In this document: piece by piece, positions 7,728 through 63,383 of the stretch | Layout of the letters: each line of letters starts with the position of its first letter | Numbering within the stretch: the stretch's first letter is position 1 | Source of the DNA: Malacoraja senta | Taxonomy: Eukaryota | Direction of reading: 5' to 3' | Length of the DNA: 64,000 nucleotides | NCBI GenBank assembly: GCA_038087875.1 | Contig: CM075992.1 | Location: forward strand, 12,402,001 to 12,466,000 | Translations under genes and position numbers: made by a program | Notes under the pieces: model-generated | Database searches by the model: none | Seen by the model: only the letters and a program-made list of their open reading frames with translations | Told to the model about the DNA's origin: nothing

Positions 7728-7869
7728 ACTCCGCACTCGGTGACCCGTGTGTGACCCCCACCGTCCTGGATCAGCCCTGGAGGAGCACGGATTGTTCCCA
7801 CACTGAGTGCAGCGATGAGACATGGATGGGTGATGGAGATCTTGCAGTGGGATGGTACAGATTTAACAG
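7728..7869 (+). CDS. UMOD/GP2/OIT3-like D8C domain, module 1 exon A
   Basis: cacag|AC...AACAG|gtaacg, 142 nt, phase 1-2: DSALGDPCVTPTVLDQPWRSTDCSHTECSDETWMGDGDLAVGWYRFN. DPC..LD.PWRS and GWYRF are D8C hallmarks. An alternative in-frame acceptor lies 6 nt upstream. Confidence 0.9.
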
Positions 7870-8190
7870 GTAACGTGAGGCGATCATTGCTGAGAAATTG
7901 GACACAGATGGAGAATGTAAACAGGAGAATGAGGGGCGTGTGAAGGGGAGATGTAGGGAGATGGGGATCATCAGTTGCTGCAATGGGACGGGGCATCAAT
8001 ACTGAGAATGGGGAGATCCCACATTGTGGAGAGAGAGACCGGGGAATAAGGAAGCGGATAGAAAACAACATTGGATTCCGGGGAATGTTGAACGGGACGG
8101 GGTGCGGTCAGAATGGCCCTGATTCCGGGTCTTTCTCTGGGTGAACAAACTCCCTCAGTTCAAGGGCTGACTCTCTGATTGTTGTTTCAG

Positions 8191-8267
8191 TTCCGGTGGA
8201 TGGAAGATTCCGGAGACTGTCGTTCCAGTGAATCACTGCTCCGGGGAGAGACCAGGCTGGTTAAACG
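8191..8267 (+). CDS. D8C module 1 exon B
   Basis: tttcag|T...AACG|gtaggg, 77 nt, phase 2-1: SSGGWKIPETVVPVNHCSGERPGWLNG, matching GG..PE.....C....P.WLNG. Confidence 0.9.
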
Positions 8268-9489
8268 GTAGGGTCAGAGTTTACAACAGATGGTCTCAGT
8301 TATTGTCGGGGAGGGTCAGACTGACGACCCAGATCTCTCCAGAGGGCCCCTCGCACGGACATGGAACCCAAACTCCCTGAGAGGTTCCCCCACAGTCACT
8401 CAGACCGCGCTCCGGCCCTGGATCCTCACGGAATGCGGTGGGGAAGCTCCAGCTTCCTGGAGTTTCCCGGCAGTGGGGCTACGGATCCCATCCGCTCGTG
8501 GTCTTTTTTTTTAAATTTCAAAATAGACCTTATTCATGTAATAAATATATACAATACATGAACCGTGGAAAAAGATCATCCGACATTCTCGGAGGCTATA
8601 CATACATTCAATACAGTTTCCCCAAATCACAATTTTACCCCACACCCTTGCCAATCATGCGGCCCACTGGCGTGGAATCCCTTCCCTTATTTTGTGGGGC
8701 ATCTCCACCGCACCCTGCCCCAATTGTCCAGCAGCCAAAGGACCCAAGACTGTGGCCCTCCCCCACCGAGCCTTGGCGTTGGCTGCACCAAGCTTCAGTG
8801 CGTCCCTCAGCACGTCCTCCTGCAGTCTGCAGCGGGCCAGTCGGCAATATTCCCCGACGGACATCTCGCTCCGCTGGGTGTTCAACAACGCTCGGGCAGA
8901 CCAAAAAGCAACTTTCACCGAGTTGATGACCTTCCAGCATCATTCGATGTCAGTCTCTGAATGTGTCCCTGGGAACAGTCCGTAAATCACAGAGTCCTCT
9001 GTGACGGAGCTGTTCAGAATAAACCGTGACAGGGACCCTTGCAGACCTCTCCAGACTCCCTTTGCGAATCCACACTCTACAAAGAGGGGGGCAACCATCT
9101 CCTCTCCATAGCAGCCGTCCCGAGGGCAGCGTGCGCTGGCAGTGAGGTTCCGACGGTGCAGGAAGGATCTGACTGGGAGGGCTCCCCTCACCGCCAGCCA
9201 AGCCAGGTCTTGGTGCTTGTTGGTGAGTTCTGGCGATGAGGCATTTTGCCAGACAAGCTGGGCAGTCTGCTCTGGGAACCACGCCACCGGATCCATCGAG
9301 TCCTTTCCGTGCAGTGCCTGCAGGACATTCCGTGCTGACCACTGCCCAATGGACATGTGGTCAAAAGTGTTGGTCCGGAAGAACCTTTCCACAAACGACA
9401 GATGGTGCGGCAATGTCCAGCTGACTGGCACATTGCGTGGCATCTGCGCCAGGCCCATCCTAAGCAACACCAGGGACAGGTAGAACCTC

Positions 9490-9604
9490 TTTCGGACCGA
9501 AACGTTGCCTATTTCCTTCGCTCCATAGATGCTGCTGGACCCACTGAGTTTCTCCAGCATTTTTGTGTACCATTGATTTTCCAGCATCTGCAGTTCCTTC
9601 TTAA
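9490..9604 (+). mobile_element. Short Penelope-like terminal fragment inserted in Tx1 copy 1
   Basis: Flanked by a 14-bp duplication ACAGGTAGAACCTC (9476-9489 and 9605-9618); absent from Tx1 copies 2 and 3; similar sequence at ~62270-62500 and 63555-63650. Confidence 0.65.
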
Positions 9605-10532
9605 ACAGGTAGAACCTCAGCAGGTAGTGACACTTGGTGCCCACGTGCCTTGGCTCTACGTTCTGCCTGATGCAGCCCCACACAAATGTGGGTATCAGTG
9701 TGAGGGTGACATTGGGCACGCTTTTACCCCCTTTGTCTGCTGACTTGTACATTGTGGCCCGTTGCACCCGGTCCATCCTCGACCCCCAGATAAACTGGAA
9801 GACAGCCCGGGTGTTTCTGTGGCGTTGGAAGGAGGGACAGGCCACACTTGCGCCAAGTACAGCAGCCCCGCGAGAACCTCACACCTGATGACCAAATTTT
9901 CCCCTTTATGGAGAGGGAGCGTTGCTTCCACATCTACAGCTACTTCCCCACCTTGGCTATCCGCTCTCGCCAATTCTTGTCTCACGCCTCAGCCTCCCCG
10001 AACCAGATCCCCAGCACCTTCAAGAAGTCAGGCTTGATGGTGAAGGGGACAGAAGATTGGTTGGGCCCGTTGCCAAAGAGCATGGCCTCGCTCTTCCTGT
10101 GGTTCCCCCCTGGCTCCCGTGGCCGACTCAAACTGGTCGCAGATGCTGATCAATCTGCGGACCGACCCTGGATCCGAGCAGAAGGTGGCGACATCATCCA
10201 TGTACAGGGAGGTTTTGACCTGAGTGCCCCCACTGCCTGGCAATGTCACTCCTCTTATGCTCGCGTCCTTCCTGATGGACTCAGCAATAGGTTCAATACG
10301 ACAGATGAACAAGACAGGGGAGAGAGGACAACCCTGCCTGACTCCAGACCTGATGACGAAGCTGTCTGATTCCCACCCATTGATTTGGACCACACTACCG
10401 ATATCTCTCTACAGGTGGAGAGCATTTGGATCCAATTTCTGATTCCCTCCCCAAAGCCCATTTTGGAGAGCACGTCCCTCATGTACGTGTGCGATATCCT
10501 GTCGTTGGCCTTCTCCTGGTCCAAGCTGACTA

Positions 10533-11490
10533 ACATAGAAACATAGAAACATACAAACTATGTTCAGGAGGAGGCCATTCGGCCCTTCAAGCCAGCACCG
10601 CCATTCATTGTGATCATGGCAGATCGTCCCCAATCAATAACCCGTGCCTGCCTTCTCCCCATATCCCTTGATTCCACTAGCCCCGAGAGCTCTATCTAAC
10701 TCTCTCTAAAATCCATCCAGTGATTTGGCCTCCACAGCCCTCAGTGGCAGGGAATTCCAGAAATTCACAACTATCTGTTTTGATTCTCACCTCAGTCTTA
10801 AATGACCTCCCCTTTATTCTAAGACTGTGGCCCCTGATTCTGGACTCGCCCCACATTGGGAACATTTTTCCTGCATCTAGCTTGTCCAGTCCTTTTATAA
10901 TTTTACATGTTTCTATAAGAACCCCGCTCATCCTTCTAAACTCCAGTGAATACAAGCCTAGTCTTTTCAATCTTTCCTCATATGACAGTCCCGCCATCCC
11001 AGGGATCAATCTTGTGAACCTAAGCTGCACTGCCTCAATCACAAGGATGTCCTACCTGCACGCCAACTTTCAGTGACTGGTGTACAAGGACACCCAGGTT
11101 TCGCTGTACCTCCCACTTACCTAACGTAACCCCATTGAGAAAATAATCTGCCCCCTTGTTTTTGCCGCCAAAGTTGATAACCTCACATTTATCTATATTA
11201 TACTGCATCTGCCACGCATCTGCCCACTCACTCAACCTGTCCAGGTCACCCTGCAACCTCCTAATATCCTCTTCTTAGTTCACAATGCCACCCAGCTTTG
11301 TGTCATCCTCAAACTTGCTAGTGTTGCTCCTAATTCCCTCTTCCAAACCATTAATATATATGGTAAACAGTTGCGGCCCCAACACCGAGCCTTGCGGCAC
11401 TCCACTCGCCCCTGACTGCCATTCTGAAAAGGACCCGATCACTCCTCCTCTTTTCTTCCAGTCGGCCAACCAATTTTCTATCTACGTCAA
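10533..11490 (-). mobile_element. CR1 3' fragment inserted in Tx1 copy 1
   Basis: SGVPQGSVLGP, KFEDDTKL, LGLYSLEFRR; (ATAGAAAC)n tail; same insertion point in copy 2, absent in copy 3. Confidence 0.85.
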
Positions 11491-13440
11491 CACCAGGCTA
11501 GGCAGGCATCCACCCATCTGTCCTGCACATAGGCAATGGTATCTCTCAGCAGCGGCAGGCTATCTGAGATTTTCTTGCCAGGTACAGCACAGGTTTGGTC
11601 CGGGTGGATCAGCCGTCCCAGAGCAGACTTGACCCGGTTGGCGATGGCCTTAGACAGGATCTTATAATCTACATTCAACAATGTGATGGGTCTCCATTTC
11701 CTTATATCCTTCATCTCCCCCTTCTGCTTGTAGATTAGGGTGATGCTGCCCTTCCTCATCGAGTCTGACATGCTGCCTGCTAGAAGCATGTCGTTGTACA
11801 CTTCCAGCAGGTCCGGGACCACCCAGTCCCACAGAGCCGTATACAACTCGGACGGTAATCCATTGCTTCCGGGAGTTTTGCTCGAGTCAATGGAACGAAT
11901 GGAGCCAGTCAGCTCCTCTAGGGTCAGTGGTTGGTCCAGACTCTCCCGCTTGCTGTCCTCAAAGACCTCCGTGATAGAGGACAGGAAGTTCTGGGAGGCA
12001 GTGCTGTCTGTGGCCTCTCTGTCATGCAAATCTGTATAAAAGGATTTACAGATCCTCAGTATATCCATCTGCAAGGATGTTACCGAGCCGTCCTCCTCCC
12101 TAAGGCTGTTCATCACAGAGCTCCCCCTATGAACCTTATGGAAGAAGAAACGTGAGCACGTCTCATCCTGCTCCACATGGCGGACCCTGGATCGGAAGAT
12201 GATCTTGGAGGATTCAGAGGTAAAGAGCCGAGCTTGCCGGTCCCTCACCTCTCTAAGTTCCTCCCTCACATCCACCCCTCTCGACTGCAGAAGGAGCAGT
12301 TGCTGCAAATCTGTCTAGAGTTGGCACAATTCCCTCTGATTCTGTCTTGCTCTCTGAACCCCTTTAACTATGAATAACCTCGATGTTCTCCTTGGTTGCT
12401 TCCCACCAGAGTGTCGGGGAGTCAAAAAGGGGCCTCACCGTTCTCCAACATGCGTAGTCCCTCTTTAGCTCCTGAATGTTCTCTGGGGTAAACAGCTTCA
12501 CATTTAACTTCCACGTCCCTCTGCCTGCCTTCCGGTCCTCCTATAGGTGACAGGAAGCCTGAAGGAGGCAGTGGTCAGAGAAGAACTCCAGCGTGACTGA
12601 ACCTTCTGATCTCGACCAGGTGAACCGCGACTGGGACCCACCTTCAGGGTTGCTGAAGGCGTCTTGCAGCTTTGCATCTTTTACCGTCTCCATCAGGAGC
12701 TTGGACATGCTGTCCAGTCTGTTATCGGCACTGCCAGATCGTCCAGCCGCATCAATGATGCAGTTGAAGTCACCGGCCAGAACGAGCTGCCGGGACAAGG
12801 CCAGCAGCGGTGGGAGCGGCTGGAGAACGGTCAGCCACTCGCTCCGCTTGGGTGAGGCGTACACATTAATCAGCCGGAGTGGAGAGCCACTGTACATTAC
12901 ATCCACCACGCTGTCCTGCTCCAGGTCAGAGCCGGAGCAGTTTCAGTGGAGGAGCAGCTTCCAGGGAGCTGGGCCCGTCTCAGGACACCCACAGTTCAGC
13001 AACGAGGTGGAGAAATTAAATACACACAACATTTAGCACAAATGTGCTTATGATTTGTGAAAGTAGTGTTTGTGATGTGTCGTGGCTAAAATTATTGCAA
13101 TCTTGTGACATTTCCGATGAGGCTGAACTATATATTATATAATTAGTCGTCATACATCACAGAAATGGGAGCAGCCCATGTCCGCCATGATGTCCCATCT
13201 GCACTACTAATTCGGCCCGTGACCCTCTAAACCTTTCATGTCCGCTCATCACCAGCTGTCAGCACCCATCGGGGGGGGGGGGGGCGGGAGCTTGTGTTTC
13301 CAGTCCAGACCTCGGCACCCTAGGGTGTCAGCACCAGGAGCAGGGGCTGGTGTGGGGAGTGTGGGTGGGGAGGGTGAAGCAGCAGCTCACCGCCGACTGA
13401 GGCAGGTCAGACCCAACCGTGGCTTGTGATCACTGCCTAA

Positions 13441-14013: not shown

Positions 14014-14093
14014 TTACACTGGCTCCACATTCACATTCCCCACCGCACTGTGGCACCGGGTACATTTTACAATGTTTATAATTCTCATTCCAG

Positions 14094-14258
14094 GTCGCCA
14101 TCCCAGCGTGAGGGACGGGGAGGTGACCAGGACAGTCTGTTTCACCAAGGGTGAAAATCTCTGTGAGAAACATCAGGAGATCAGGGTGAAAAACTGCACC
14201 GGTTACTTTGTGTATCAGCTGTGGCCGTTACGCCACAATCACGCTGTGTATTGTACAG
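14094..14258 (+). CDS. D8C module 1 exon C
   Basis: ttccag|GT...ACAG|gtaggt, 165 nt, phase 1-1: GRHPSVRDGEVTRTVCFTKGENLCEKHQEIRVKNCTGYFVYQLWPLRHNHAVYCT. Confidence 0.92.
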
Positions 14259-15375: not shown

Positions 15376-15412
15376 TTCCTTCCTTTTTATCAGAAACTGA
15401 TAACAATTACAG

Positions 15413-19035: not shown

Positions 19036-19202
19036 TTTCAAAGCTCTGTGATTTCACACCGTGGATTCAAATCCAGGTGTTCACTGCATCGATTGACTCT
19101 ATTTGAGTAAGCACAATCAACAATGCATAACCACGACATTTGAATGTAATCAGTTAATGGTTTTATTTAATTTAATAAAAGTAACAAAATTAGGCCCATT
19201 TA

Positions 19203-20193
19203 TTATAATGGGGGATTTAATACTGTATCCAGCACGGCATCACCAAACCCTCTGAGATCTTTAATCTCCTTATGGTAATACTTGTGAAACATCTGTTCAC
19301 TTGCCCATCCTGCGGCCGCGAGAATAAGGTCTATTGTCTGAATCCCTGGCCGCTGATGTTGATGCCGCCCTGGTGGAATGAGATTTAAATTTATCAGTAT
19401 CAATACCTGAATATCTCAACACCTGTTTCAACCATCGTGAGATTGTTTGTGTTGACACTTTCTTATGAGGCTTCTTATGACTAATAAAACATACCAATTC
19501 GGTGCCTCTTAAAACCTTTGTTGTTTCTATGTAACATTTCACATATGTTACTACACACAGTCGTGGATCAGTAGGATATGCTAAAAATTCCAACTTGCAT
19601 CCTGTGAACCTAGGTCTACTTTGCTTCAGGAAATCATAGACATAGAATGTCATGGCATTTGGCCCTACTTTCATTCTATCAATTCTGAGTTTCTGTAATG
19701 TTTGAACTCTCTGAGCTGAAACTAATGCCATGAGCACAACCAATTTCATGGTGATTTTGGATAATGACAGAGTTTCAACTGGATTCCAATTCCTTAGCAA
19801 CATCAGTACATCTTTTACATTCCAAATTTCTTTATACCTAGGTCTGGGAGGATTAGAGTTGAAAATTCCTTTCATAAACCTACAGACCCAAGGATGTGCT
19901 CCTATTGGAGTTTGTTCTGATTCACTGCTTAAATATGCAGAGAGTGCACTTCGTGCAGTATTAATTGCACTATAATTTAATTTTAATTCATAGTATAGAG
20001 TAGAAAGGAACTCTATTACATCTGAAATTTCTGCTGGGTTATATGCAATATGTTTCCCTGAACAAAATTCCTCCCATTTCTTTATATAGGAGATGTACTG
20101 CTTCTGGGTACTATTCCTCCAGGCTGTTGTTATAACATCCACCGTACGGTCTGATAATCCTTTTCCAAGATATGGCCTTCTTAGAATCTGCAA
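19203..20193 (-). pseudogene. DIRS tyrosine recombinase, one frameshift near 19345
   Basis: SAQRVQTL, KSHSTRAASTS (HxxR), then in another frame ILAAAGWASEQMFHKYY carrying the putative catalytic Tyr. Confidence 0.88.
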
Positions 20194-21990
20194 ATCAACA
20201 AACCAATATGATCATGTAAAGGATGTGGTTCATCAGTCACAGGGTGTATAAGCAGTTTAATCTGCTTTGGAATAACCATAAGGGTTTTTTTAATTATTTT
20301 TAACACCAGTGGGTACCATAGCTGTTTAGGCCAATCTGGTACTACCAAAATCCCTGAGGCTGAATCTTGTTTAATTTTCTGTATGCATCTGTGGGTTAAA
20401 CAAAATGGTGGAAACGCATACAGAAACATACCACCCCAATGTAGCGAGAAAGCATCCACCACTACTGCTCCAGGATCAGGTTCCCATGACACATACTTAG
20501 GCAAACTGGTGGTTCAATCTTGATGCAAACAGATCAATTTCTGGCATTCCAAATTGTGTGATAATTTGTGTGAATATCATTAAATTTACGTGATCTTTTG
20601 TCTGTAATTGTATTAAATTTACCTGGTAAATATATTGCTGACAGCCAAATTTTCCTGGCAATACCCCAGGTCCAAATTTCATTCGCTAATTTATCACATG
20701 ATTCTGATTTTATACCACCCATGTGATTTATGTATGCTACAGCTGTAGTATTGTCAACCTGCACCTGAACATTCACATTTCCCATATCAGTGCAATAAGC
20801 TCTAAGGCCGTAAAATGCGCCTAATAGCTCTAGGTAATTGATTCCTAGATTTTCCAGCAAAGGTGCTTCATTCACATTCCACCTACCTCCACAGCTGGAC
20901 ATCATGTTAGTAGCGCCACAACCCAGCGCACTTACATCAGTCTGTAGAGTGACGGAAGGTGTTTCTACCAGGACTTTTCTGGAAGCATTAGAAACATTGT
21001 TAATCCACCATTCTATTTCTGTAATGGATTAAATTGTTAATTTCATGGGCCTGTCAAAATGCCCTCTATTCATTTTTAACGCTTGTACCTTAGCTCTCTG
21101 TAAACATTGATAATGCAATGGTCCAAACGTGACCGCTGGAAACCCTGCAATTAATTTGCCTAGCAAGCTTGCCACTTCTCTAATTGAAGGTGTGTCCTCG
21201 TTAATGAGTTTTATGCAACCTTCAATTAACTGCAGCTTTTATCTTTTGGCAAAGTGATTACCATGTGTTCGGAGTTAATTGTGAACCCTAGGTAATCAAT
21301 CTTTTTGCTTGGTAACAATTTAGATTTTTGTAGGTGAATAATTAAACCTAATTTCTCAAAAATTTATTTGACTCTGGATACTGACAATTTTGCAGCAGCC
21401 AAAGTGTCCCCTACAGTGAGGATATCCTCTAAATAAGCCATTAATACATGGCCCTCAGCTCTTAACAGAGCTAAAATTGGTTTGAGCAATTAAGTGAATA
21501 ATCTTGGTGCTGAAATCAGACCATTGGGCAATGCTTTAAATTGCCATAACTGACTCATCCATCTAAATTTCAAATATCTTTGATCATTACCATGCATTGC
21601 CACGGAATAATATGCATCTTGCAGATCTATGCTTGCCATGTAGCAATTTTCTGTGATTAGCGAATTGCATTAGTAAATGTTTCCATTTTGAAATGTTTGT
21701 ATTGTACATAAAGGTTAAGATTTGTCAGATCCAATATGATTCTACATCCACCATCCTTTTTTGTTCTTGGAAAAATATTTGATACAAACTGATGGTGTTG
21801 TTCTACTGACTTCTCTATTACCCCCTTTTTGGTTAAAGTTTCTAATTCTCCTTTGATCAACTTATTCTCTTCTTTTGAGAAAATTCGTGACCAGTTTGAA
21901 TTTTCTTGCCTTGGAGGATCCAAATGTGGATAGAAACACAATTTTGAATCCTACAATGCTATTTAGAATAAATGAATCATTTATTATTAA
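20181..21990 (-). pseudogene. DIRS RT - RNase H - DNA N6-adenine methyltransferase-like ORF (disrupted)
   Basis: KKDGGCRIILDL..LN...HFKME; IDLQDAY; MAYLEDIL (YLDD altered); INYLELLG, VDNTTAVAYINHMGG; IDLFASRLN...DAF...YAFPPF. Confidence 0.88.
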
Positions 21991-22299
21991 CTGTCATTCT
22001 TTTAGGAAGAATCGTAACCTTCCCCCTACTTGTGAATGTGAAACATTTATTGTATTCCTTACCAGACCAGGACCCCCTACCTCGGGGTTTGCCACCGGCA
22101 ATTGTCCGCTTCTGGTAGGCACATTGTAACCTCCACGTATCCCCGGTGCAGCACGCCAACGTGTATACGAGAATGATCGGCTTGTTCCTTCTCCAGCACC
22201 AGTATTCCGCCTGTAGGGATACTGCCTTCGCACCGCTCTGCTCATCATCGGTGGTTTCATCATCATGCCAAGGTTCTTGACTCTTCATTCAAGTCCTTT

Positions 22300-26120: not shown

Positions 26121-26121
26121 A

Positions 26122-26578: not shown

Positions 26579-28666
26579 GATGAGGGGGGATCTTATAGAA
26601 ACGTATAAAAGGAGTGCACAAGCTGGATGCAGGAAAAATGTTCCCAATGTTGGGCGAGTCCAGAACCAGGGGCCACAGTCTTAGAATAAAGCGGTTGCCA
26701 TTTAAGACTGAGGCGAAAAAAAACTTTTTTCACCCAGACAGTTGTGAATTTGTGTAATTTCCTGCCACAGAGGGCAGCGGAGGTCAAATCACTCGATGGA
26801 TATAAGAGAGATTTAGATAGAGCTTTAGGGGATAGTGCAATCAAGGGATATGGGGAGAAGGCAGGCACGGGTTATTGATTGGGGCCGATCAGCCATGATT
26901 GCAATGAATGGCGGTGCTGCTTCGAAGGGCCGAATGGCCTCCTCCTGCACCTATTTTCTATGTTTCTATGATTGCGGGGACCTTCTCCTTAATCAGTAAA
27001 GCAACTTGCCCCGCCTCTTTTACCACCACCTCTATCTTCCCTGCACCCAGCACCAACTCCTCAGCCACGCATTCATCTGATCTATCTTCTTGTTCCTACC
27101 CTCACTAACATGTGGCACCGGCGGCAATCTAGACATTACTACCCTGGAGGTCCTGCATTAACCTTTTGCCTAATTCCCTATCTTCAGTCCACAGGACCTC
27201 ATCCCTTTTCCTGCCTCTGTCATTTGTGCTGACGTACACAACGACTTCTGGCTGCTCCCCCTCCCCCTTGAGAATGTTCTGCAGCGGCTGGGAGACATCC
27301 TGGAGCCTGGCACCAGGGAGACAGCACACCATCCTGGAGTCTCATTTGCTGCCCCAGAATCTCCTGTCTGTTTCCCTAACTAATGATTCTCCAATCACTA
27401 TCACTCTGCCTGAGTGTGCCCTTCCCCACTGTGCCTCAGAGCCGGGTTTGATGCCACAGACCTGATTGCTGCTGCCCTCCCTGGCCACTCATCCCCCCAA
27501 CAGTATCCAAAGGGACAAACCTGCTGTCGAGGGAATGACCACAGGAGATTCCTGCACTTTCTCACTACTCCCTTTCCTGGTGATCACCCGTCTACTTTCT
27601 GCCCCTACCCGAGGCGTGACCACCTCACTGTGACTCCTATCTGTGACATCCTCAGTGTCCCGGATGATGTTGAGGTCATCCAGCTCCTGCTCCAGTTCCC
27701 TAACGCTGTCTGTAAGGAGCTGCAGCTGGACACACCTCCCACAGGCATAGTCCTCAGCAACACTGAAGGATTCCCTGACTTCCCACATCCTGCAGGAGGA
27801 GCACTAACTGCCCTATCTGCCATCATTACTGTACTAAACCACGGAGAGTGTATATTAGAAAAATAACCACAAACCAGACCTTATCCCGCTGTCACCCTGT
27901 ACGCCGAAGCCTCTCAAGCCAAAGCCTCCACTTACCCTCCACACGGCACATGTACGTAAACACGGCCGCTCCATACAGGCCCCTCCACATGTATCTACCT
28001 TCCCTTTATACACTCACTAAGGAGCAATCATTCGGGATGCTATGTATTTTCAGCTTCTCCAACTGAAACTCACCTCATCTCATTAACTGTGGGGCCTCTG
28101 TAATCAGCTGGCCTTTTTAAAAAGTCCCTCTCTTCTACAGCTAGTCAGTGTTCCCTGGGGACTGAGATACAACGTGATATCTCCCAGTGACAATCGAGAA
28201 TGGAAACACATTTACCCTGAAGTCTCACCATTTCCCGTTTAAAGGATTCCCACATGTTGCGTGTTGTTTTATCCATGTAACTGCTTCCAATCTACTTTGG
28301 CCGGGTCCTGCCTTACATTATGGAAAGGGGCCTTCCTTTAGCTTACAATGTGGATATCCAAGCAACCTCGAGATGGGACTGATGAGATCGATCCCCTGGA
28401 CACTGGCATGAAGCTGATGGGCCGAGTGGTCGTCCTTGTGGCAATCAGTTCATGGCGGGATCTCGATGAAGCTGGGTTTAGAGACGTGGATTGATGCCAG
28501 CGTTTATCCAGGAGATGGTGTCATTGGTCAGGGAGTGAACGGAGATTATTGGTGCTCGGGGTTGGTGAGGGTGGAGATGCAGATGAGGGAGGTGGGGAAC
28601 ATCAGGCTGGGGACATGAGGTGAACTTGACATCAACACCGAACATCATTCTGTCCCTCAGTCACAG

Positions 28667-28807
28667 ACTCCGCACTCGGTGACCCGTGTGTGACCCCCAC
28701 CGTCCTGGATCAGCCCTGGAGGAGCACGTATTGTTCCCACACTGAGTCAGCGGTGGGACAACGATGGGTGATAGAAATCTTGCAGTGGGATGGTACAGAT
28801 TTAACAG
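28667..28807 (+). pseudogene. D8C module 2 exon A, 1-nt deletion
   Basis: 141 nt; GAG T-C AGC versus GAG TGC AGC in module 1; splice sites intact. Confidence 0.8.
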
Positions 28808-29128
28808 GTAACGTGAGGCGATCATTGCTGAGAAATTGGACACGGATGGAGAATGTAAACAGGAGAATGAGGGGCGTGTGAAGGGGAGATGTAGGGAGAT
28901 GGGAATCATCAGTTGCTGCAATGGGACGGGGCATCAATACTGAGAATGGGGAGATCCCACATTGTGGAGAGAGAGACCCGGGAAGACGGAAGCGGAGGGA
29001 AAACAACATTGGATTCCGGGGAATGTTGAATGGGGACGGGGTGCGGTCAGAATGGCCCTGATTCCGGTCTTTCTCTGGGTGAACAAACTCCCTCAGTTCA
29101 GGGGCTGACTCTCTGATTGTTGTTTCAG

Positions 29129-29205
29129 TTCCGGTAGATGGAAGATTCCGGAGACTGTCGTTCTGAGGGATCACTGCTCCGGGGAGAGACCAGGCTGGTT
29201 AAACG
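29129..29205 (+). CDS. D8C module 2 exon B
   Basis: 77 nt, ag/gt intact: SGRWKIPETVVLRDHCSGERPGWLN. Confidence 0.85.
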
Positions 29206-29440
29206 GTAGGGTCAGAGTTTACAACACATGGTCTCAGTTATTGTCGGGGAGGGTCAGACTGACGACCCAGATCTCTCCAGAGGGCCCCTCGCACGGACAT
29301 GGAACCCAAACTCCCTGAGACGTTCCCCCACAGTCACTCAGACCGCGCTCCGGCCCTGGATCCTCACGGAGTGCGGTGGGGAAGCTCCAGCTTCCTGGAG
29401 TTTCCCGGCAGTGGGGCTACGGATCCCATCCGCCCGCTGT

Positions 29441-34333: not shown

Positions 34334-34498
34334 GTCCCCATCCCAGCGTGGGAGACGGGGAGGTGACCAGGACAGTCTGTTTCACCAAGGGCAGATACAT
34401 CTGCTACTGGAACCGGGAGATCAGGGTGAAGAACTGCACCGGTTACTTTGTGTATCAGCTGTGGCCGTCACCCCACAAGGAGGCTGTGTATTGTACAG
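34334..34498 (+). CDS. D8C module 2 exon C
   Basis: 165 nt: GPHPSVGDGEVTRTVCFTKGRYICYWNREIRVKNCTGYFVYQLWPSPHKEAVYCT. Confidence 0.88.
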
Positions 34499-38330: not shown

Positions 38331-38810
38331 GACAATCGAGAATGGAAACACATTTACCCTGAAGTCTCACCATTTCCCATTTAAAGGATTCCCACATGTT
38401 GCGTGTTGTTTTATCCATGTAACTGCTTCCAATCTACTTTGGCTGGGTCCTGCCTTACGTTATGGAAAGGGGCCTTCCTTTAGCTTACAATGTGGATATC
38501 CAAGCAACCTCGAGATGGGACTGATGAGATCGATCCCCTGGACACTGGCATGAAGCTGATGGGCCAAGTGGTCGTCCTTGTGGCAATCAGTTCATGGTGG
38601 GAGATCGATGAAGCTGGGTTTAGAGACGTGGGATTGGTTCCAGCGTTTATCCGGGAGATGGTGTCATTGGTCAGGGAGTGAACGGGAGATTATTGGTGCT
38701 CGGGGTTGGTGAGGGTGGAGATGCAGATGAGGGAGGTGGGGAACATGAGGCTGGGGACATGAGCTGAACTTGACATTAACACCGAACATCATTCTGTCCC
38801 TCAGTCACAG

Positions 38811-38952
38811 ACTCCGCACTCGGTGACCCGTGTGTGACCCCCACCGTCCTGGATCAGCCCTGGAGGAGCACGGATTGTTCCCACACTGTGTGCAGCGGTG
38901 GGACAACGATGGGTGATGGAAATCTTGCAGTGGGATGGTACAGATTTAACAG
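38811..38952 (+). CDS. D8C module 3 exon A
   Basis: 142 nt open: DSALGDPCVTPTVLDQPWRSTDCSHTVCSGGTTMGDGNLAVGWYRFN. Confidence 0.9.
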
Positions 38953-39274: not shown

Positions 39275-39351
39275 TTTCGGTAGATGGAAGATTCCGGAGA
39301 CTTTCGTTCCAGGGTATCACTGCTCCGGGAAGAGACCAGGCTGGTTAGCCG
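39275..39351 (+). CDS. D8C module 3 exon B
   Basis: 77 nt: FGRWKIPETFVPGYHCSGKRPGWLA. Confidence 0.88.
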
Positions 39352-42500: not shown

Positions 42501-43270
42501 TCCGCAAAGCCGAGTATCTGGCCGGTCCCGACAGGACACGCTGCTCCAGGCCCGCTGGTAGGCCGCGAGGACGGGTTGAAATTGCTGCTCGGAGAAAGGC
42601 CGCCTCTCCGACCAGGTAGGGACCCTGAAAAGCAGTTCCCCCCTTCCCCCCCCCCCCACATAAAAAAGACCAAAGCTCCAGAAACAAAACACTATAACTG
42701 ACTAAAAATAAATAAAGAGGTGAAAAAAAACGGACGGCTGTAGGCTGGGCAGCCATACCATGCAGGACGGCGCCCCCTATCTGTCTGCAAGGATGTTACC
42801 AAGCCGTCCTCCTCCCTAAGGCTGTTCATCACAGAGCTCCCCCTGTGAACCTTATGGAAGAAGAAGCATGAGCACGTCTCATCTTGCTCCACGTGGCGGA
42901 ACCTGGATTGGAGGATGATCTTGGACAATTCAGAGGTAAAGAGCCGAGCTTGACGGCCCTTCAACCCTTCAAGTTGCTCTCTCACATCCACCCCTCTCGA
43001 CTGCAGAAGGAGCAGTTGCTGCAAATCTGTCTGGAGTTGACACAATTCCCTCTGACTCTGTCTTGCTCTCTTTAAATATGAAGAACCTCTTGATGTTCTC
43101 CTTGGTTGCTTTCCACAAGAGTGTCGGGGAGTCAAACAGGGGCTTCACCGTTCTCCAACATGCGTAGTCCCTCTTTAGCTGCTCAATGTTCTCTGGGGTC
43201 AACAGCTTCACATTTCACTTCCACGTCCCTCTGCCTGCCTTCCGATCCTCCTAAAGGTGACAGGAAGCCT
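39588..43270 (-). mobile_element. Tx1/L1 LINE copy 3 (no CR1 insert; unclassified ~780-bp insert at ~42001-42780; 5' end deleted)
   Basis: Paralogous to copies 1 and 2; continuous CAAGCTGACTAGGCAGG across the CR1 site. Confidence 0.85.
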
Positions 43271-43387
43271 GAATACACACAACATTTAGCACAAATGTAC
43301 TTATAATGTGTGAATGAAGTGTTTGTGATGTGTCGTGGTTAAAATTATTGCAATCTAGTGACATTTCCGATGAGGCTAAACTATAGC

Positions 43388-44056
43388 ACTGACCCTAGAG
43401 GAGCTGACTGGCTCCATCCATTGTTTGACTCGAGTAAAACTCCAGGAAGCAATGGCTTACCGGCCAAGTTGTATTCGGCTCTGTGGGACTGGGTGGGCCC
43501 AGACCTGCTGGAAGTGTACAACGACATGTTTCTAGCCGGCAGCATGTCAGACGATGAGGAAGGGCAGCATCACCCTAATCTACAAGCAGAAGCAGGAGAT
43601 GAAGGATATAAGGAATTGGAGACCCTTCACATTGTTGAATGTTGATTATAAGATCCTGTCTAAGGCCATCGTCAACCGGGTCAAGTCTGCTCTGGGACCA
43701 AACCTGTGCTGTACCTGGCAGCAAAATCTCAGACAACCTGGCACTGCTGAGAGATACCATTGCCTACGTGCAGGACAGGTGGGTTGATGCCTGCCTAGTC
43801 AGCTTGGACCAGGAGAAGGCCTTCAACAGGATATTGCACACGTACATGAGGGACGTGCTCTCCAAAATGGGCTTTGGGGAGGGAATCAGAAATTGGATCC
43901 AACTGCTCTCCACCGATATCTGTAGTGTGGTCCAAATCAACGGGAGGGAATCAGACAGCTTCATCATCAGGTCTGGAGTCAGGCAGGGTTGCCCTCTCTC
44001 CCCTGTCTTGTTCATCTGTTGTAATGAACCTATTGCCAAGTCCATCAGGAAGGACC
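43388..44056 (+). mobile_element. Oppositely oriented Tx1 RT fragment
   Basis: WRPFTLLNVDYKIL, SLDQEKAFNR and SGVRQGCPLSP on the plus strand. Confidence 0.8.
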
Positions 44057-44368
44057 CAACTGCGCTACTCTAACCATGTCCCTCTAAACATCTCATCACC
44101 AGCACCCATCCGGGGGGGGGGGGGGGCTTGTGTTTCCAGTCCAGACCCCGGCACCCTAGGGTGTCAGCACCAGGAGCCGGTCTCAGGGATCAGGGGCTGC
44201 TGTGGGGAGTGTGGGTGGGGAGGGTGAGGGCAGCAGCTCACCGCTGACTGAGGCAGGTCAGACCCAACCGTGGCTTGTGATCACTGCCTTACACTGGCTC
44301 CACATTCACATTCCCCACCGCACTGTGGCACCGGGTACATTTTACAATGTTTATAATCCTCATTCCAG

Positions 44369-44533
44369 GTCCCCATCCCAGCGTGAGGGACGGGGAGGTG
44401 ACCAGGACAGTCTGTTTCACCAAGGATGCAAAGCTCTGTGAGAATCATCAGGAGATCAGGGTGAAGAACTGCACCGTTTACTTTGTGTATCAGCTGTGGC
44501 CGTTACCCTACAGCGACGCTGTGTATTGTACAG
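44369..44533 (+). CDS. D8C module 3 exon C
   Basis: 165 nt: GPHPSVRDGEVTRTVCFTKDAKLCENHQEIRVKNCTVYFVYQLWPLPYSDAVYCT. Confidence 0.9.
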
Positions 44534-47016
44534 GTAGGTCCCCGTTCCCCAGTCACACGGGCTGTTGGTGTTGTGGAGATATTCTGTGATGCCCCGATTC
44601 ACCAACACACACAGTGGGCAGTGTTCAGGTTAACTGCCCCCCCTCCCCCCCCCGCCCCTAAACCTGTCCCCTCCCACCCTGGTCCCAGCTTCGTCCCCTC
44701 CAATCTTTACCTCAGCCCGGCTCCTCCACCCCCTCCCCCCACCCACCTCTCTCCTGGCTCAGACCCCTGCACTTCCACCCTCACCCTGGCTTAGTCCCCA
44801 CTCCCTGACCGCACAACCCCCTCCACGCCCCCCCCTCACTCTGCAAGACCCTCACTCATGGATCTATCTCCCCTCCCCCCCTCGCTCCAGCATCGGAACT
44901 TCCCTTCTCTCTCCCATGCTCCGTTGGGACTTTCCCATCAACTTGCCGGGTTCACAGTGATTCTCCTGTGTGATGGGGAAGTGCGAGTGAAGGGAGTCGG
45001 TGTCACTGTTAGGACTGAGCAGAGACAATATGGGCTGTGGAAGGAATTTCACGTTTCACAGTCCCTGGAGCACATTGAGGACACGTCCAGTAGAACAGAT
45101 GAGGGAACCAGTGGCTGGGCTGTGGGGGGTTTTCAGAAAACATTTAGTACGTTCCTGCACAAGAGGCTGGTCAACAAGGTCAGAGCACATGGAATTGTTC
45201 ACACACTGACATGGATTGAGAATTGGCTTTTGGACAGAGAGCAACAGGTGAGAATAAGCAGATCATTCTCAGGTTGGCAGCAGTGACGTGTGGGTACAAG
45301 AGGGCTCAGTGCTTGGGCCCCGGTGAGTCACAGTCTGTATCAATAACTTGGCTGGGACGATCATCTGTGGACTGAGATACTCCGTGATATCTCCCATTGA
45401 CCAGCAGTATCCCTCACTGTCCACAGTCAGTTCCCTGGGAACTGAGATAAACTGTGATATCTCCCACCGACCACATGGTGTCCCTTTAGTCTTGCAGCTG
45501 TCTACAATCTCCCAGTACATTTGTTCTTCTAATTCCCGCTCTCTATTTGAGGGCCTATCATACACTGCCAACAAGGTGATCATCCCCTTTTTAGTTCTCA
45601 GCTCCACTGGATGAACTGTCAGTAATGTCATCTCCAACGATTGCGGGGACCTTCTCCTTAATCAGTAAAACAACTGCCCCGCCTCTTTTACCCCCACCTT
45701 ATCTTCCCTGCCCCCAGCACCAACTCCTCAGCCACACATTCATCTGGCCTATCTTCCTGTTCCTACCCTCACTAGCATGTGGCACCGGCGGCAATCTAGA
45801 CATTACTACCCTGGAGGTCCTGCATTAACCTTTTGCCTAATTCCCTATCCAGTCCACAGGACCTCATCCCTTTTCCTGCCTCTGTCCTACACAACGACTT
45901 CTGACTGCTCCCCCTCCCCCTTGAGAATGTTCTGCAGCGGCTGGGAGACATCCTGGACCCTGGCACCAGGGAGGCAGCACACCATCCTGGAGTCTCATCT
46001 GCTGCCCCAGAATCTCCTGTCTGTTTCCCTAACTAACGATTCTCCAATCATTTGGGGACATGCCAAACTTCCTTACTTCTAAGGGAGTAGAGACGTTTGT
46101 GTGCATTGATATGGGTGGTCCGCGACAAATTACTGGTTATATTTACTCCTAGGAATTAAAACCTTTCAACCATCTGCTCTACTCCGCCACTCAATCATTG
46201 TTGATCTAACTTTCCCCCTCAACCGCATTCTCCCCATAGGTTATGAGGTTCTTAATCTCCTTCCTGTACTCCATCTCGTTATTGATATCTGACCCACAAT
46301 GGTGGTGCCGTCTCCGAATTTGCAAATTGAGATGGATTTGTATTTGCCTCAACAGTTGTGGGTGTACAAGGGGTAAAGAAGGGAACCAGATCGTCCATAT
46401 TTAGACAGCTGCAGTCCACAATCAGTGTTCCCTGCAGACTGAGATACACCGTGATATCTCCCACTGACACCCAGTGTCCCTCACTGTCCACAGTCAGTTT
46501 CCCTGGGGACTGAGATACACCGTAATATCTTCCAGTGACAATCGAGAATGGGAACACATTTACCCTGAAGTCTCACCATTTCCCGTTTAAAGGATTCCCA
46601 CATGTTGCGTGTTGTTTTATCCATGTAACTGCTTCCAATCTACTTTGGCCGGGTCATGCCTTACGTTATGGAAAGGGGCCTTCCTTTAGCTTACAATGTG
46701 GATATCCAATCAACCTCGAGATGGGACTGATGAGATCGATCCCCTGGACACTGGCATGAAGCTGATGGGCCGAGTGATCGTCCTTGTGGCAATAAGTTCA
46801 TGGTGGGAGAGCGATGAAGCTGGGTTTAGAGACGTGGGATTGGTGTCAGCGTTTATCCGGGAGATGGTGTGATTGGTCAGGGAGTGAACGGGAGATTATT
46901 GGTGCTCGGGGTTGGTGAGGGTGGAGATGCAGATGAGGGAGGTGGGGAACATGAGGCTGGGGACATGAGCTGAACTTGACATTAACACCGAACATCATTC
47001 TGTCCCTCAGTCACAG

Positions 47017-47158
47017 ACTCCGCACTCGGTGACCCGTGTGTGACCCCCACCGTCCTGGATCAGCCCTGGAGGAGCACGGATTGTTCCCACACTGAGTGCA
47101 GCGATGGGACAACGATGGGTGATGGAAATCTTGCAGTGGGATGGTACAGATTTAACAG
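47017..47158 (+). CDS. D8C module 4 exon A
   Basis: 142 nt open: DSALGDPCVTPTVLDQPWRSTDCSHTECSDGTTMGDGNLAVGWYRFN. Confidence 0.9.
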
Positions 47159-52882: not shown

Positions 52883-52959
52883 TTCCGGTGGATGGAAGAT
52901 TCCGGAGACTGGCGTTCTGAGGGATCACTGCTCCGGGGAGAGACCAGGCTGGTTAAACG
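52883..52959 (+). CDS. D8C module 4 exon B
   Basis: 77 nt: SGGWKIPETGVLRDHCSGERPGWLN. Confidence 0.9.
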
Positions 52960-53803: not shown

Positions 53804-53968
53804 GTCCCCATCCCAGCGTGGGAGACGGGGAGGTGACCAGGACAGTCTGTTTCACCAAGCATGATAACTTCTGTGAGAAACATCAGGAGATCAGGGTGAA
53901 GAACTGCACCGGTTACTTTGTGTATCAGCTGTGGCCGTCACCCCACAAGGAGACTGTGTATTGTACAG
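53804..53968 (+). CDS. D8C module 4 exon C
   Basis: 165 nt: GPHPSVGDGEVTRTVCFTKHDNFCEKHQEIRVKNCTGYFVYQLWPSPHKETVYCT. Confidence 0.92.
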
Positions 53969-55603: not shown

Positions 55604-55634
<31 letters not shown>

Positions 55635-57989: not shown

Positions 57990-58101
57990 ATCCAGCCTCC
58001 GTACCAACTGAGGAAGCCCAGGACACAGTCGAAACCCCAGGAAACAACAGCTGAACCCCGGGAGGATTTGTCCATCGTCCCAGAACCAAATACAAGCTCA
58101 G
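57990..58101 (+). CDS. Mucin-like stalk exon S1 (one extra A gives a premature TGA as assembled)
   Basis: tacag|AT...TCAG|gtattg, 112 nt; removing one A gives DPASVPTEEAQDTVEPQETTAEPREDLSIVPEPNTSS. Confidence 0.6.
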
Positions 58102-59117: not shown

Positions 59118-59692
59118 ATCCAGCCTCCGTACCAACTGAGGAAGCCCAGGACACAGCCGAACCCCAGGAAACATCCGAACCCCAGGAAACAGCCGAACCC
59201 CAGAAACAGCCGAACCCCAGGAAACAGTCAAACCCCAGGAAACAGCCGAACCCCAGGAAACAGCCGAACCCAGGAAACAGCCGAACCCCAGGAAACAGCC
59301 GAACCCCCAGGAAACAGCCGAACCCCAGGAAACAGCCGAACCCCAGGAAACAGCCGAACCCCAGGAAACATCCGAACCCCAGGAAACAGCCGAACCCCAG
59401 GAAACAGCCGAACCCCAGGAAACAGCCGAACCCCCGGAAACAGCCGAACCCCAGGAAACATCCGAACCCCAGAAACTCCCGAACCCCAGGAAACAGCCGA
59501 ACCCCAGGAAACTCCCGAACCCCAGGAAACAGCCGAACCCCAGGAAACTCCCGAACCCAGGAAACAGCCGAACCCCAGGAAACTCCCGAACCCCAGGAAA
59601 CAGCCGAACCCGAGGAAACTCCCGAACCCCAGGAAACAACAGCTGAACCTCGGAGGATGTGTCCACTGTCCCAGAACCAGATGCAAGCTCAG
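59118..59692 (+). CDS. Mucin-like stalk exon S2 with 18-bp coding minisatellite (AEPQET)n; several 1-nt indels as assembled
   Basis: Paralog of S1 with the same splice sites; about 27 copies of GCCGAACCCCAGGAAACA (59155-59650). Confidence 0.65.
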
Positions 59693-60650: not shown

Positions 60651-61074
60651 GCCCTAAGAGAGAATGGGTGACTGGAGATTGCGGGAGGAGGGGAAAGTCA
60701 GTGGAGAGCTTGTGGAGAATGTATTTTGGTGACTGACTGACCCTCGGGGGCGGGGGCTGAATGGTGAAGCAAGTGAGCGTGTGCGCGGATTGGGCAAGGG
60801 GTGTGAGTGAGTCGGGAAAAGGAAGGATTTAGTCAGGATCATGGGATAGAACTCTGTAGGAGAGTTGAGGAGGAACAAGGAAGGTGGCGTGGAGCGTGTT
60901 GGAGGAGTGTGTAATGTTCCAGGTGAGATGTGGGACCTGTGAGATTTGGTGTGTGTTGCTGTCAGCATGGACTGGTGACTCTTGGTCTCTGCAGCCGACT
61001 TCCCTCCTGATCAGCTGTTCAATGTGTTTTTACTCTTTTACCCTCCCTGTCCCTCCTCCTCTTTCTTCTTCCAG

Positions 61075-61170
61075 ATCCACCGTTGGACACAACTCTGGAA
61101 CCCCAGGGAGCAGGGACTGGAGACTCTGGTCCGGGTTTAACTCGTGACCCAGCAGGGTCTGCAAGCTCAG
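61075..61170 (+). CDS. Stalk exon S3
   Basis: Long polypyrimidine tract, ccag|AT...TCAG|gtatca, 96 nt, phase 1-1, open: DPPLDTTLEPQGAGTGDSGPGLTRDPAGSASS. Confidence 0.75.
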
Positions 61171-61204
61171 GTATCAGTGGTGGGGAGCATGGAACATAGA
61201 CAAA

Positions 61205-61525
61205 GGCAGCATGGTGGCGCAGCGGTAGAGTTGCTGGCTTACAGCGCCAGAGACCCCGGTTTGATCCTGACTATGAGTGCTGTCTGTACGGAGTTTGTAC
61301 GTTCTCCCCGTGACCTGCGTGGGTTTTCTCTGGGTGCTTCGGTTTCCTCCCACACTCCAAAGACGTACAGGTTTGTCGGTTAATTGGCTTGGTATGATTG
61401 TAAATTGTCCCTGGTGTGTAGTATAGTGTGTAGTTTAGTGTTAGTGTGCGGGGATCACTGGTCAGTGCAGACTGGGTGGGCCGAAGGGCCTTGTTTCCAT
61501 GTTGTATCTCCAAACTAATCTAAAC
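61205..61525 (+). mobile_element. HE1/V-SINE (tRNA-derived)
   Basis: A box TGGCGCAGCGG, B box GGTTTGATCC, V-core GTTTGTACGTTCTCCCCGTG...GGTTTCCTCCCACACTCCAAAGAC. Confidence 0.85.
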
Positions 61526-61899
61526 AGGACATTACAGGAACAGGCCCATCGCCCCACAAAGTCCGTGCCGAACATGATGCCAATTTAAACCTCTGCCTGC
61601 ACGTGATCCATATCCCTACATTTCCTGCATACAAACATTCCTAACCAAACAACGTAATATCCACTATCGTATCAGCCTCCACCACCATTTCTGGCAGCAC
61701 ATTCCAGGCCCCCACCACTCTGTGTAAAAGACTTGTCCCCACATCTGTTCAACTTTGCACCTTGCATCTTAAAGCTGTGCCTTCTAATCTTTGACATTTC
61801 CACCCTGGGGGAAATGTTCTAAATGGCTACCCCATCATTGCTGCATAATTTTATATACTTCTGTCTGATCCATACTTAGCCTCGACAACCCAGAGAAAA

Positions 61900-62510
61900 C
61901 ACTTCCTGAACACCTCCGCAGTCCGCCAAGGCCAATGAGATCTCCCCGGTTGCTAAACACATTAACTCCTCCTCCCATTCCTATACTGACCTTTCTGTCC
62001 TGGGCCTCCTCCACTGTCAGAGTGAAGCCCAACACAAAATTGGAGAAACAGCACCTCATATTTCGATAGGGCAGCTTACAACCCAGTGGTTTGATAATAG
62101 ATTTCTCTAACTTCTAATAACCCTTGCTTTTCCTCTCTCCGTCCCACCCCACCCTCGTTCTCTGACTCGTGTCACTGTCCTCCCTGATTAATTTTACTGA
62201 TATTATGCCTTGTCATCATCTCCCACCCCCCCCTCCCCCAGCTACAATGAACCATTCAACATTTACTAGACCATTTCTTCTCTCCAGAGATGCTGCCGGT
62301 CCCGCTGAGTTACTCCAGCACTTTGTGTCTAACTGCTTGTCATAGTCTGCTTTGATCTGTTGTTTTCACACCTTAGCCTTCCATATCTCCAGTCTCCCTC
62401 TTCCCTAACTCTCAGATTGAAGAAGGGTCTCGACCCAAATCGTCACCCATTCCTTCTCTCCAGAGATGCTGCCGGTCTCACTGAGTTACTCCTGCTGTTT
62501 ATGTCCGTCT
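61900..62510 (+). mobile_element. Penelope-like element 3' fragment (GIY-YIG C-terminus and terminal repeats)
   Basis: Degenerate EHLR...PVAKH.NS..HS.TDLSVLGLLHC...EKQHLIFR.GSLQPSG. Confidence 0.7.
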
Positions 62511-63287
62511 CCAGAGAAAACAATCCCGGGTAGTCCAATGTCTCCTTAAAGCTAATGCCCTCTAATCCATGCAGCATTCTGGTAAAATGTTGCAGTTACG
62601 TAGGACTTTGGTTGGGCTGCATGTAGAGTATTGTTATAGCCGTTCAGGTTGCCCCATTGCAGGAGTGATGTGGAGGCTTTGACAAGGAGCAGAAGGAGTT
62701 TACAAGAATGCTGCCTGGATTAGAGGGCATTAGCTTTAAGGAGGCATTGGACTACCCTGGATAGTTTTCTCTGGAGATGGACATAAAAAAGCTGGAGTAA
62801 CTCAGTGAGAACAGACCCACAGATGTTACCTGACCCGCTAGGTTACTCCAGCACTATATATCTTTGGTATCAACAAGCATCTGCAGTCTTTGTTCCTACA
62901 TTTTTCAGAGCAGATAGTTGAGGCAGGTCTAATAACATTTACAAGCCATTTTGACATGTACATGGACAGGAAAGGTTTCGAGGAATTTGGGCCAATTTGT
63001 GGGCAAATGGAACTAGCTGAGATGTGGCGGCATGGATGAGTTGGGCTGAAGGGCCTGTTTCCGTGCTCTATAATCTGTGACTGTGGCCAGTCCCTGAAAT
63101 TCACCCCGACTCGGTCTGAGGGGAGTGACGTGGAGTGACAGACATTTCAGAAGGAGAGTGGGTGAAAGGAGACTGGATGATGCTGCTCTCTCCACAGAGC
63201 CAGTCCTCCAATTCCCAAACTCCACTGACTGTCTGATGACCTGTTGTAGTGTTGCCACACTCCCGTGTCTCTGTTCCTTTATTCCAG

Positions 63288-63383
63288 ATCCCCAGATGTC
63301 CACAGTGGAACAGACCCAGGGATCGTTGACTGGAGAATCCATCCAGGATTCGGCTTCTGTCCCAGTGGGAGATACATCCTCAG
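63288..63383 (+). CDS. Stalk exon S4
   Basis: ttccag|AT...TCAG|gtacca, 96 nt, phase 1-1, open: DPQMSTVEQTQGSLTGESIQDSASVPVGDTSS. Confidence 0.75.

Follow-up and report, generated by a model that had tools for sequence, protein, structure and literature searches.

Exon organization of the locus

The stretch analysed here (the window) comprises 64,000 nucleotides (nt) of the skate Malacoraja senta (assembly GCA_038087875.1, contig CM075992.1, positions 12,402,001 to 12,466,000 of the forward strand), and it carries part of a gene built of repeated D8C/D10C modules, the domain of uromodulin (UMOD) and GP2, and of exons encoding a stalk. Combining a motif search with self-comparison, we located twelve small domain exons on the plus strand, which represent four copies of an exon triplet and are all bordered by AG and GT (Table 1). 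In each module, exon 1 of 148 nt (phase 1-2), exon 2 of 77 nt (phase 2-1) and exon 3 of 165 nt (phase 1-1) add up to 390 nt, that is 130 codons, and a linker of 7 residues lies between consecutive modules. The modules are followed by four stalk exons that begin with D-P and finish with S-S. In total, 13 of the 16 exons of the window are in frame, and modules 1, 3 and 4 give open spliced frames. A preliminary description of this DNA had proposed twelve small exons with canonical splice sites and the same phases, and the exact boundaries agree with it; the four DP...SSG exons rich in Ser, Thr, Pro and Glu that it placed behind them were also found. The recent tandem duplication of the exon triplet that it suggested is likewise indicated by the non-coding sequence: because the introns flanking the exons are 95-99.5% identical between modules (near exons 1-2), the modules of this locus are young. 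Stalk exon S3 (window 61,075-61,170) holds an acidic D-S-G motif, which we take to be a candidate for glycosaminoglycan attachment by its resemblance to such motifs.

Table 1. Exons of the gene in the window (positions counted from the first nucleotide of the window)
Feature	Position	Strand	Remarks
Module 1 exon 1	7722..7869	+	148 nt, phase 1-2; C1, new Cys pair, GWYRF motif
Module 1 exon 2	8191..8267	+	77 nt, phase 2-1; C4 and variable loop 1
Module 1 exon 3	14094..14258	+	165 nt, phase 1-1; C5, C7, C8, C10, variable loops 2 and 3
Module 2 exon 1	28661..28807	+	147 nt; 1 base below paralogs; frameshifted as assembled
Module 2 exon 2	29129..29205	+	77 nt, intact
Module 2 exon 3	34334..34498	+	165 nt, intact
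Module 3 exon 1	38805..38952	+	148 nt
Module 3 exon 2	39275..39351	+	77 nt
Module 3 exon 3	44369..44533	+	165 nt
Module 4 exon 1	47011..47158	+	148 nt
Module 4 exon 2	52883..52959	+	77 nt
Module 4 exon 3	53804..53968	+	165 nt
Stalk exon type S1	57990..58101	+	112 nt, 3n+1, stop inside; frameshifted as assembled
Stalk exon type S1 with expanded 18-bp coding variable number tandem repeat (VNTR)	59118..59692	+	575 nt, 3n+2; frameshifted as assembled
Stalk exon S3	61075..61170	+	96 nt, phase 1-1, intact; 97% protein identity to Amblyraja stalk exon
Stalk exon S4	63288..63383	+	96 nt, phase 1-1, intact; 91% protein identity to Amblyraja stalk exon

The modules are variant D10C domains

All four spliced modules, with an X filling the break in module 2, reach 122-130 bits (E values from 1e-33 to 3e-36) against a uromodulin/GP2 D10C profile that we built from 54 non-elasmobranch domains, which bears out the D8C identity proposed in the preliminary description. 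The Pfam profile PF23283 (D8C_UMOD), against which the spliced peptide was to be checked, gave a mixed answer: exon 3 alone, taken from two of its four copies, matches with E values of 1.7e-4 (module 1) and 2.4e-4 (module 4) at about 22 bits, which is below the cut-off of 27 bits, and the close relative P0007 exceeds this cut-off with 42 bits. Over its full length, exon 3 also aligns with chains of UMOD and GP2 (E 0.008-0.08). By these profile scores, the modules of the window are D8C/D10C family domains of a variant form. Regarding their structure, the AlphaFold2 model that we compared is that of a single domain of the skate relative P0009, not of the window's own peptide, and was made from an alignment of 55; its predicted local distance difference test (pLDDT) scores are 97-98 by block over residues 31-150. 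In the PDB it matches GP2 (7p6s, E 4.5e-15, root-mean-square deviation (rmsd) 1.8 Å), and the significant matches are all GP2 or UMOD. By way of this relative, the window modules are predicted to share the D10C fold.

Altered cysteines and missing decoy sites

Six of the ten D10C cysteines are kept in the window modules, namely those of the pairs C1-C8, C4-C10 and C5-C7; C2, C3, C6 and C9 are missing and two new cysteines are present. The absence of C3 and C6 extends to all 112 elasmobranch domains compared, whereas the canonical C3/C6 are found in 85-89% of the 54 non-elasmobranch domains. C2 and a cysteine in the C9 loop occur jointly in 32 of 37 shark domains; among 75 batoid domains, none has C2 and 16 keep the C9-loop cysteine. 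The new pair, encoded by exon 1, is jointly present in 96 of 110 elasmobranch domains, and the remaining eight cysteines are invariant among intact genomic exons. C3 and C6 form a bonded pair in GP2. Judged from these alignments, canonical disulfides have been lost, C3-C6 in the whole family and C2-C9 in batoids, and a new cysteine pair, presumably disulfide-bonded, has been gained. That cysteines were lost and gained in pairs argues for a folded, selected domain.

As defined in PMC8930769, the decoy module consists of a disulfide-bonded beta-hairpin that packs on D10C, presents a high-mannose glycan at UMOD N275 or GP2 N65, and shields this glycan. A sequon equivalent to N275 is present in none of the 112 elasmobranch domains and in none of the four window modules, and the N65 equivalent is carried by 44 of the 112 but by none of the four. 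The hairpin cysteine before C1 is absent from the window modules and is found in 1% of the elasmobranch domains, compared with 93% of 14 ZP-type domains. Other sequons do occur in the window modules, just before C8 in all four and at the exon 1/2 junction in three. The suggestion of the preliminary description that the protein is a FimH-type glycan decoy is therefore not supported, because both known glycan sites and the beta-hairpin are missing.

Excess amino-acid change in three loops

Three regions hold most of the variation between modules: the surroundings of C4 (exon 2), the C5-C7 hairpin, and the loop that precedes C10. Loop 2, located at the C5-C7 hairpin, is 71-89% identical between the window modules, against 95-99.5% for the introns near exons 1-2. 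A custom-written implementation of the M1a and M2a site models gave a likelihood-ratio statistic (2ΔL) of 42.4 for exon 3 (19 sequences), 20.1 for exon 2 (14 sequences) and 14.0 for exon 1 (15 sequences), with a positively selected class of omega about 5-8 that takes up 10-33% of the codons. For exon 3, 32 null simulations gave values no higher than 17.5; in 24 of them, extreme recombination was imposed by reshuffling the tips segment by segment, in imitation of gene conversion. When variable positions were defined from 94 non-skate domains, the ratio of nonsynonymous to synonymous differences (pN/pS) of variable versus scaffold positions was 2.84 versus 0.60 for the window modules and 1.36 versus 0.79 for genomic copies. 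Taken together, these sequence comparisons indicate an excess of amino-acid change in three loop regions, and these selected loops border on the sites from which disulfides were lost. The C5-C7 hairpin of UMOD serves as an epitope that binds proteins (Bence Jones proteins) and is held rigid by C5-C7 and C3-C6 (PMC8930769). The three loops may together form a binding surface of variable sequence at that end of the domain which is rich in disulfides.

The gene beyond the window

Reading 304 kb around the window for the rest of the gene revealed that the coordinates of the preliminary description cover only the middle of a larger gene. A signal-peptide exon of phase 1 lies on the same strand at G000:C16:12,367,227-275, 34.8 kb upstream; it has 16 hydrophobic-core codons, its phase fits the acceptor of exon 1, and it is the sole leader in the 304 kb. 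To the right of the gap at 63704, four more modules (window +63,904 to +105,100), each then followed by a stalk exon, are nearly identical to each other, the fourth with a one-base indel in exon 3. Further stalk exons come next, and then a 65-bp satellite array (window +114,994 to +146,550, about 376 copies in the longest block), which appears to sit in the last introns of the gene. A terminal coding exon, short, acidic and ending in a stop, was located with a custom profile at about C16:12,552,486-560 (about window +150.5 kb, 86 kb downstream); together with its 3′ flank, it is homologous to the final exon of a C5 paralog.

Of the flanking parts that had been proposed for a search, the signal peptide was thus found, and ZP, glycosylphosphatidylinositol (GPI) and transmembrane exons were not. 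None of at least 12 genomic matches to PF00100 falls in the gene span outside its assembly gaps, the nearest ZP match on C16 being at 4.73 Mb, and the gene finishes with a terminal exon of a different type. No transmembrane or GPI part was recognized by inspection, the terminal exon being short, acidic and stop-ended, no GPI predictor having been run; among 59 relatives, five show a hydrophobic window beyond residue 35, which lies close to the N-terminus in three and further along in two. Two C-terminal sequences from relatives, used as genome queries, had no match on C16. Exon phases and the relatives suggest that all exons belong to one secreted transcript, whose predicted product would consist of a leader, up to eight D10C-variant domains, an acidic Ser/Thr/Pro/Glu stalk and a small C-terminal domain.

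A family in sharks, skates and rays

The genome holds at least 41 matches to exon 3 and at least 18 to the leader exon, on many contigs. Protein searches returned 59 models of this design from sharks, skates and rays, which bear the names uncharacterized, mucin-5AC-like, uromodulin-like, GP2-like or OIT3-like, and no ZP or EGF domain is listed for the elasmobranch matches among them. The RefSeq skate and ray models have a leader, 1-5 D10C domains, a stalk and a short C-terminal domain, and Pfam finds D8C alone in those scanned. The window locus has the features of this family: a leader, modules without C3/C6 and with the new cysteine pair, D-P...S-S stalk exons and a short C-terminal domain. 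In contrast to the lineage-specific gene envisaged in the preliminary description, the same architecture occurs in skates, rays and sharks, and multi-D10C arrays have been published for the zebrafish omcins (PMC11415648). Since the design is shared by sharks and batoids, the family predates the split between them.

A quick tree was computed from only 128 columns, with 94 of 170 domains selected by taxon and by a length of at least 110. In it, 65 of 66 elasmobranch rows fall in one group (SH-like approximate likelihood-ratio test (SH-aLRT) 93), separate from the multi-D10C domains of teleosts, and the window modules are placed among domains of Amblyraja and Leucoraja. Family models close with either of two short C-terminal domains or run on into a read-through tail. 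One type, of about 45 residues, is strand-helix-strand, the other, of about 65 residues, contains cysteines, and neither has a Pfam match (P0001-P0065). The model of a relative's C-terminal domain has one helix (pLDDT 80-86); compared with 48,161 chains by VIA-align, SEA folds included (Z at most 3.2), its best Z was 3.2 and none reached 5. Its best Atlas score was 0.75, for an unnamed cluster, and a homolog search returned two ray proteins only. Two-copy self-association of a C-terminal domain (P0120 residues 254-302) scored 0.17 and 0.10, the mark being 0.32.

Two further loci of the family were seen in this genome. One, 1 Mb away (G000:C16:11,310,500-11,349,900), has two leader exons that face each other and are separated by one D10C module and a gap. 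The other is a compact paralog (G000:C5:47,601,400-47,614,200) with a leader, one module whose exon 1 is frameshifted as assembled, a gap and both C-terminal exons; no stalk exon was seen in it.

Comparison with known D10C proteins

The closest known proteins are the omcins of zebrafish and other teleosts (omc1-15; Omc5 is zgc153932), described in PMC11415648. Like the skate gene, they have several D10C domains per protein in variable number, clustered paralogs and rapid gain and loss. They differ in that Omc5 has, next to its five D10C domains, an EGF IV domain, a ZP module and a predicted GPI anchor; none of these was found in the skate gene, which has instead an acidic stalk of repeated exons and a small C-terminal domain. 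An antibody against the omcin family stains gut and kidney, according to PMC11415648. There the omcins are called teleost-specific, and the paper does not contain the terms shark, skate, cartilaginous, chondrichth- or elasmobranch.

With human UMOD and GP2 (PMC8930769; PDB 7p6r, 7p6s and 7q3n), the D10C fold is shared (rmsd 1.2-2.1 Å, about 40% identity for the skate relative). UMOD and GP2 carry one domain, whereas the skate gene has an array, lacks C2-C9, C3-C6, the beta-hairpin and the N275/N65 sequons, has the new exon-1 cysteine pair, and has no EGF, ZP or GPI part that we could find. Automated RefSeq predictions from skates, rays and sharks, for which no functional study was found, for example those from Amblyraja (XP_032879434-439), Leucoraja (XP_055514970) and Rhinoraja (XP_078286253), resemble it in leader, module, stalk exon types and C-terminal type, with 68-81% identity in exon 3 for eight of the nine matches of one search; the window locus differs from them in having up to eight modules and a stalk VNTR. 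Teleost D8C-C1q proteins and the multi-D8C proteins of corals and molluscs also join D8C to parts other than ZP, in arrays of up to 17 matched stretches, but such ZP-less proteins are about 35-44% identical, keep canonical C3/C6 in most cases and lack the new cysteine pair. What is new is the ZP-less architecture of leader, array and stalk, the altered cysteine pattern and the selected loops; the D10C domain and its arrays were already known. No published description of the elasmobranch family was found in the literature searched, which takes in a minority of the subscription journals.

Proposed function and alternatives

What could such a protein do? We see about an even chance that the gene encodes a secreted, multivalent binder of microbial or parasite surfaces at an epithelium, acting through its variable loops and not through a FimH-type decoy glycan. 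Without two of its disulfides, the disulfide-rich end of the domain would have gained looser loops and become the binding surface, while several heads of differing sequence, carried by an extended acidic stalk with O-glycans, would provide avidity and breadth in mucus or another secretion. The multi-D10C gene omc5 of zebrafish is induced by bacteria (E. coli), and its mutants die sooner with bacteria (PMC11415648); this antibacterial phenotype is a functional precedent for a microbe-binding protein. The recognition role named as one option in the preliminary description is kept here as a likely function.

A number of observations weigh against this binder. In the assembly, one missing base in exon 1 of module 2 brings stops into exon 2 of the spliced frame, and 3 of the 16 window exons (this one and two stalk exons) are frameshifted, so that of the four-domain array first described, the exons of the four modules stand and the intact frame does not. 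Five assembly gaps interrupt the gene. Downstream, three modules lie on the minus strand between two 200-N gaps, probably as a mis-oriented contig, possibly as a haplotype duplication; the penultimate exon was found neither by profile nor by blastn in the 304 kb and may be in an assembly gap. As to selection, the statistic of 14.0 for exon 1 is within the range of the recombination null, which was simulated for exon 3 and not for exons 1 and 2; the scaffold pN/pS is merely 0.6-0.8 and the overall pairwise ratio of nonsynonymous to synonymous divergence (dN/dS) is 1.16, so purifying selection is modest; dN/dS of exon 3 among the four window copies is 1.06 (dN relative to the local intron 1.55); and the synonymous counts behind these estimates are small. 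The putative shared face of the loops derives from the disulfide connectivity of GP2. Besides, positive selection is equally typical of reproductive proteins.

Does this copy make a four-domain protein at all? It may be a decaying member of a birth-and-death family, or be partly misassembled, and make none, which we regard as unlikely; the function of the family would then be a separate question. In favour of decay or misassembly, along with the three frameshifted exons, the base lost from module 2 is outside any homopolymer run (the assembly has one exact copy of this stretch and no second one for comparison), 5 of 57 D10C exons examined genome-wide have one-base indels (18, 18 and 21 copies of exons 1, 2 and 3 from fetched genome stretches, a subset of the copies), and the locus has its five gaps, inverted blocks and a 25-kb satellite. 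However, none of these 57 exons has an in-frame stop and all keep AG/GT. Five of the 18-bp units of the VNTR exon are one base short or long, all by single-base events in short runs or homopolymers, and of 48 one-base indels counted in six pairs of near-identical introns or segments, 35 are in homopolymers. Homopolymer indels are a pattern of long-read consensus error, and their prevalence here, with no accompanying stops, points to such error. The other S1-type stalk exons recovered are all in frame (8 of 8). Moreover, because each triplet is a phase 1-1 unit, a broken module could be skipped in frame. An Amblyraja gene is annotated in RefSeq with isoforms of 762 and 632 residues (three and two modules), which differ by one module plus the exon 1+2 sequence of the second module; certain further isoforms each lack one stalk exon of 32 residues, and three other species have isoforms that omit exon 3 alone. 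These are automated models, and near-identical exons can mislead such annotation. Among the 23 sequencing runs listed as matching window 28600-29260, the best word share was 0.25 and no RNA run was listed.

The remaining alternatives concern the role of the family. A reproductive-tract protein (of egg jelly, oviducal gland or seminal fluid), with loops diversifying by gamete recognition or sexual conflict, seems improbable to us. Reproductive proteins typically have fast-evolving loops and are often duplicated, and ZP, the usual partner of D10C, is an egg-coat module; but the D10C proteins with tested functions (UMOD, GP2 and omc5) are epithelial and antibacterial (PMC8930769 and PMC11415648), and divergence among modules and paralogs within one genome would suit a broad coverage of ligands better than species matching. 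Slightly more improbable still is a passive decoy in the manner of UMOD and GP2, its domain N-glycans and stalk O-glycans being shown to bacterial lectins such as FimH. The common fold, the N65-position sequon kept in part of the elasmobranch domains, and the sequons before C8 and at the exon 1/2 junction would fit some glycan role, the pre-C8 site adjoining the C1-C8 bond and so probably lying near the N65 region. Yet the window modules have neither decoy sequon, the N275 sequon is absent from all elasmobranch domains compared and the hairpin cysteine from nearly all, no ZP module that could build filaments was found, and a decoy leaves the selection on protein loops unexplained. Slightly less probable again, in our judgement, is a structural protein secreted in bulk or forming a gel (in skin mucus, canal jelly, or the matrix of cartilage or egg case), under relaxed constraint and with no recognition role. 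The long acidic stalk of repeated exons and variable length and the modest scaffold constraint would agree with it, as would the presence of D10C in VWDE and LZP/OIT3, neither of which PMC8930769 describes as a decoy for microbes. Relaxed constraint, however, yields an omega near 1, not 5 at clustered sites.

Returning to the loop-mediated binder, a wider and rather unlikely reading of the sequence data is that sharks and rays possess a diversified, non-immunoglobulin recognition system on the D10C fold, with dozens of germline modules, three positively selected loops and variation by splicing. Loops freed by two lost disulfides would be arrayed several modules to each secreted molecule. Exons 1+2 form one phase 1-1 unit and exon 3 another, which would allow modules to be skipped, or chimeric domains to arise by recombination.

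In known proteins, D10C serves as the scaffold on which a glycan is offered to FimH; in the skate gene it appears rewired, detached from the ZP filament and multiplied, with loops that appear to be under diversifying selection. On the loop-mediated reading, D10C would here be a protein-surface binder, in an unstudied multigene family of the oldest living jawed-vertebrate lineage with adaptive immunity, and this raises the question of whether the D10C domains of omcins, corals and LZP/VWDE bind via the same loops. The weight of these ideas is tempered by the fact that antibacterial multi-D10C proteins (the omcins) are published, that models are already in RefSeq and that the window copy may be broken.

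Other elements in the window

In addition to the exons, the window contains several repeats. Broken pieces of a non-LTR (long terminal repeat) retrotransposon with Pfam matches to RVT_1 and zf-RVT lie at window 8,650-12,320 on the minus strand; these and the copies near 30,000-33,200 and 40,000-44,100 are situated in the introns between exons 2 and 3 and were carried along when the modules duplicated. The intron that separates module 1 from module 2 contains (window 19,200-22,000, minus strand) fragments with reverse transcriptase, RNase H and recombinase-like pieces, which we take to be a DIRS-type retrotransposon by resemblance; three of the pieces have no Pfam match. A leader-like hydrophobic stretch at window 3740-3800 was rejected as a leader, since it lacks an in-frame Met and belongs to a repeated element. 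At window 695-3,330, a tandem duplication with a period of about 1.1 kb contains G-rich simple repeats, its copies being 90% identical.

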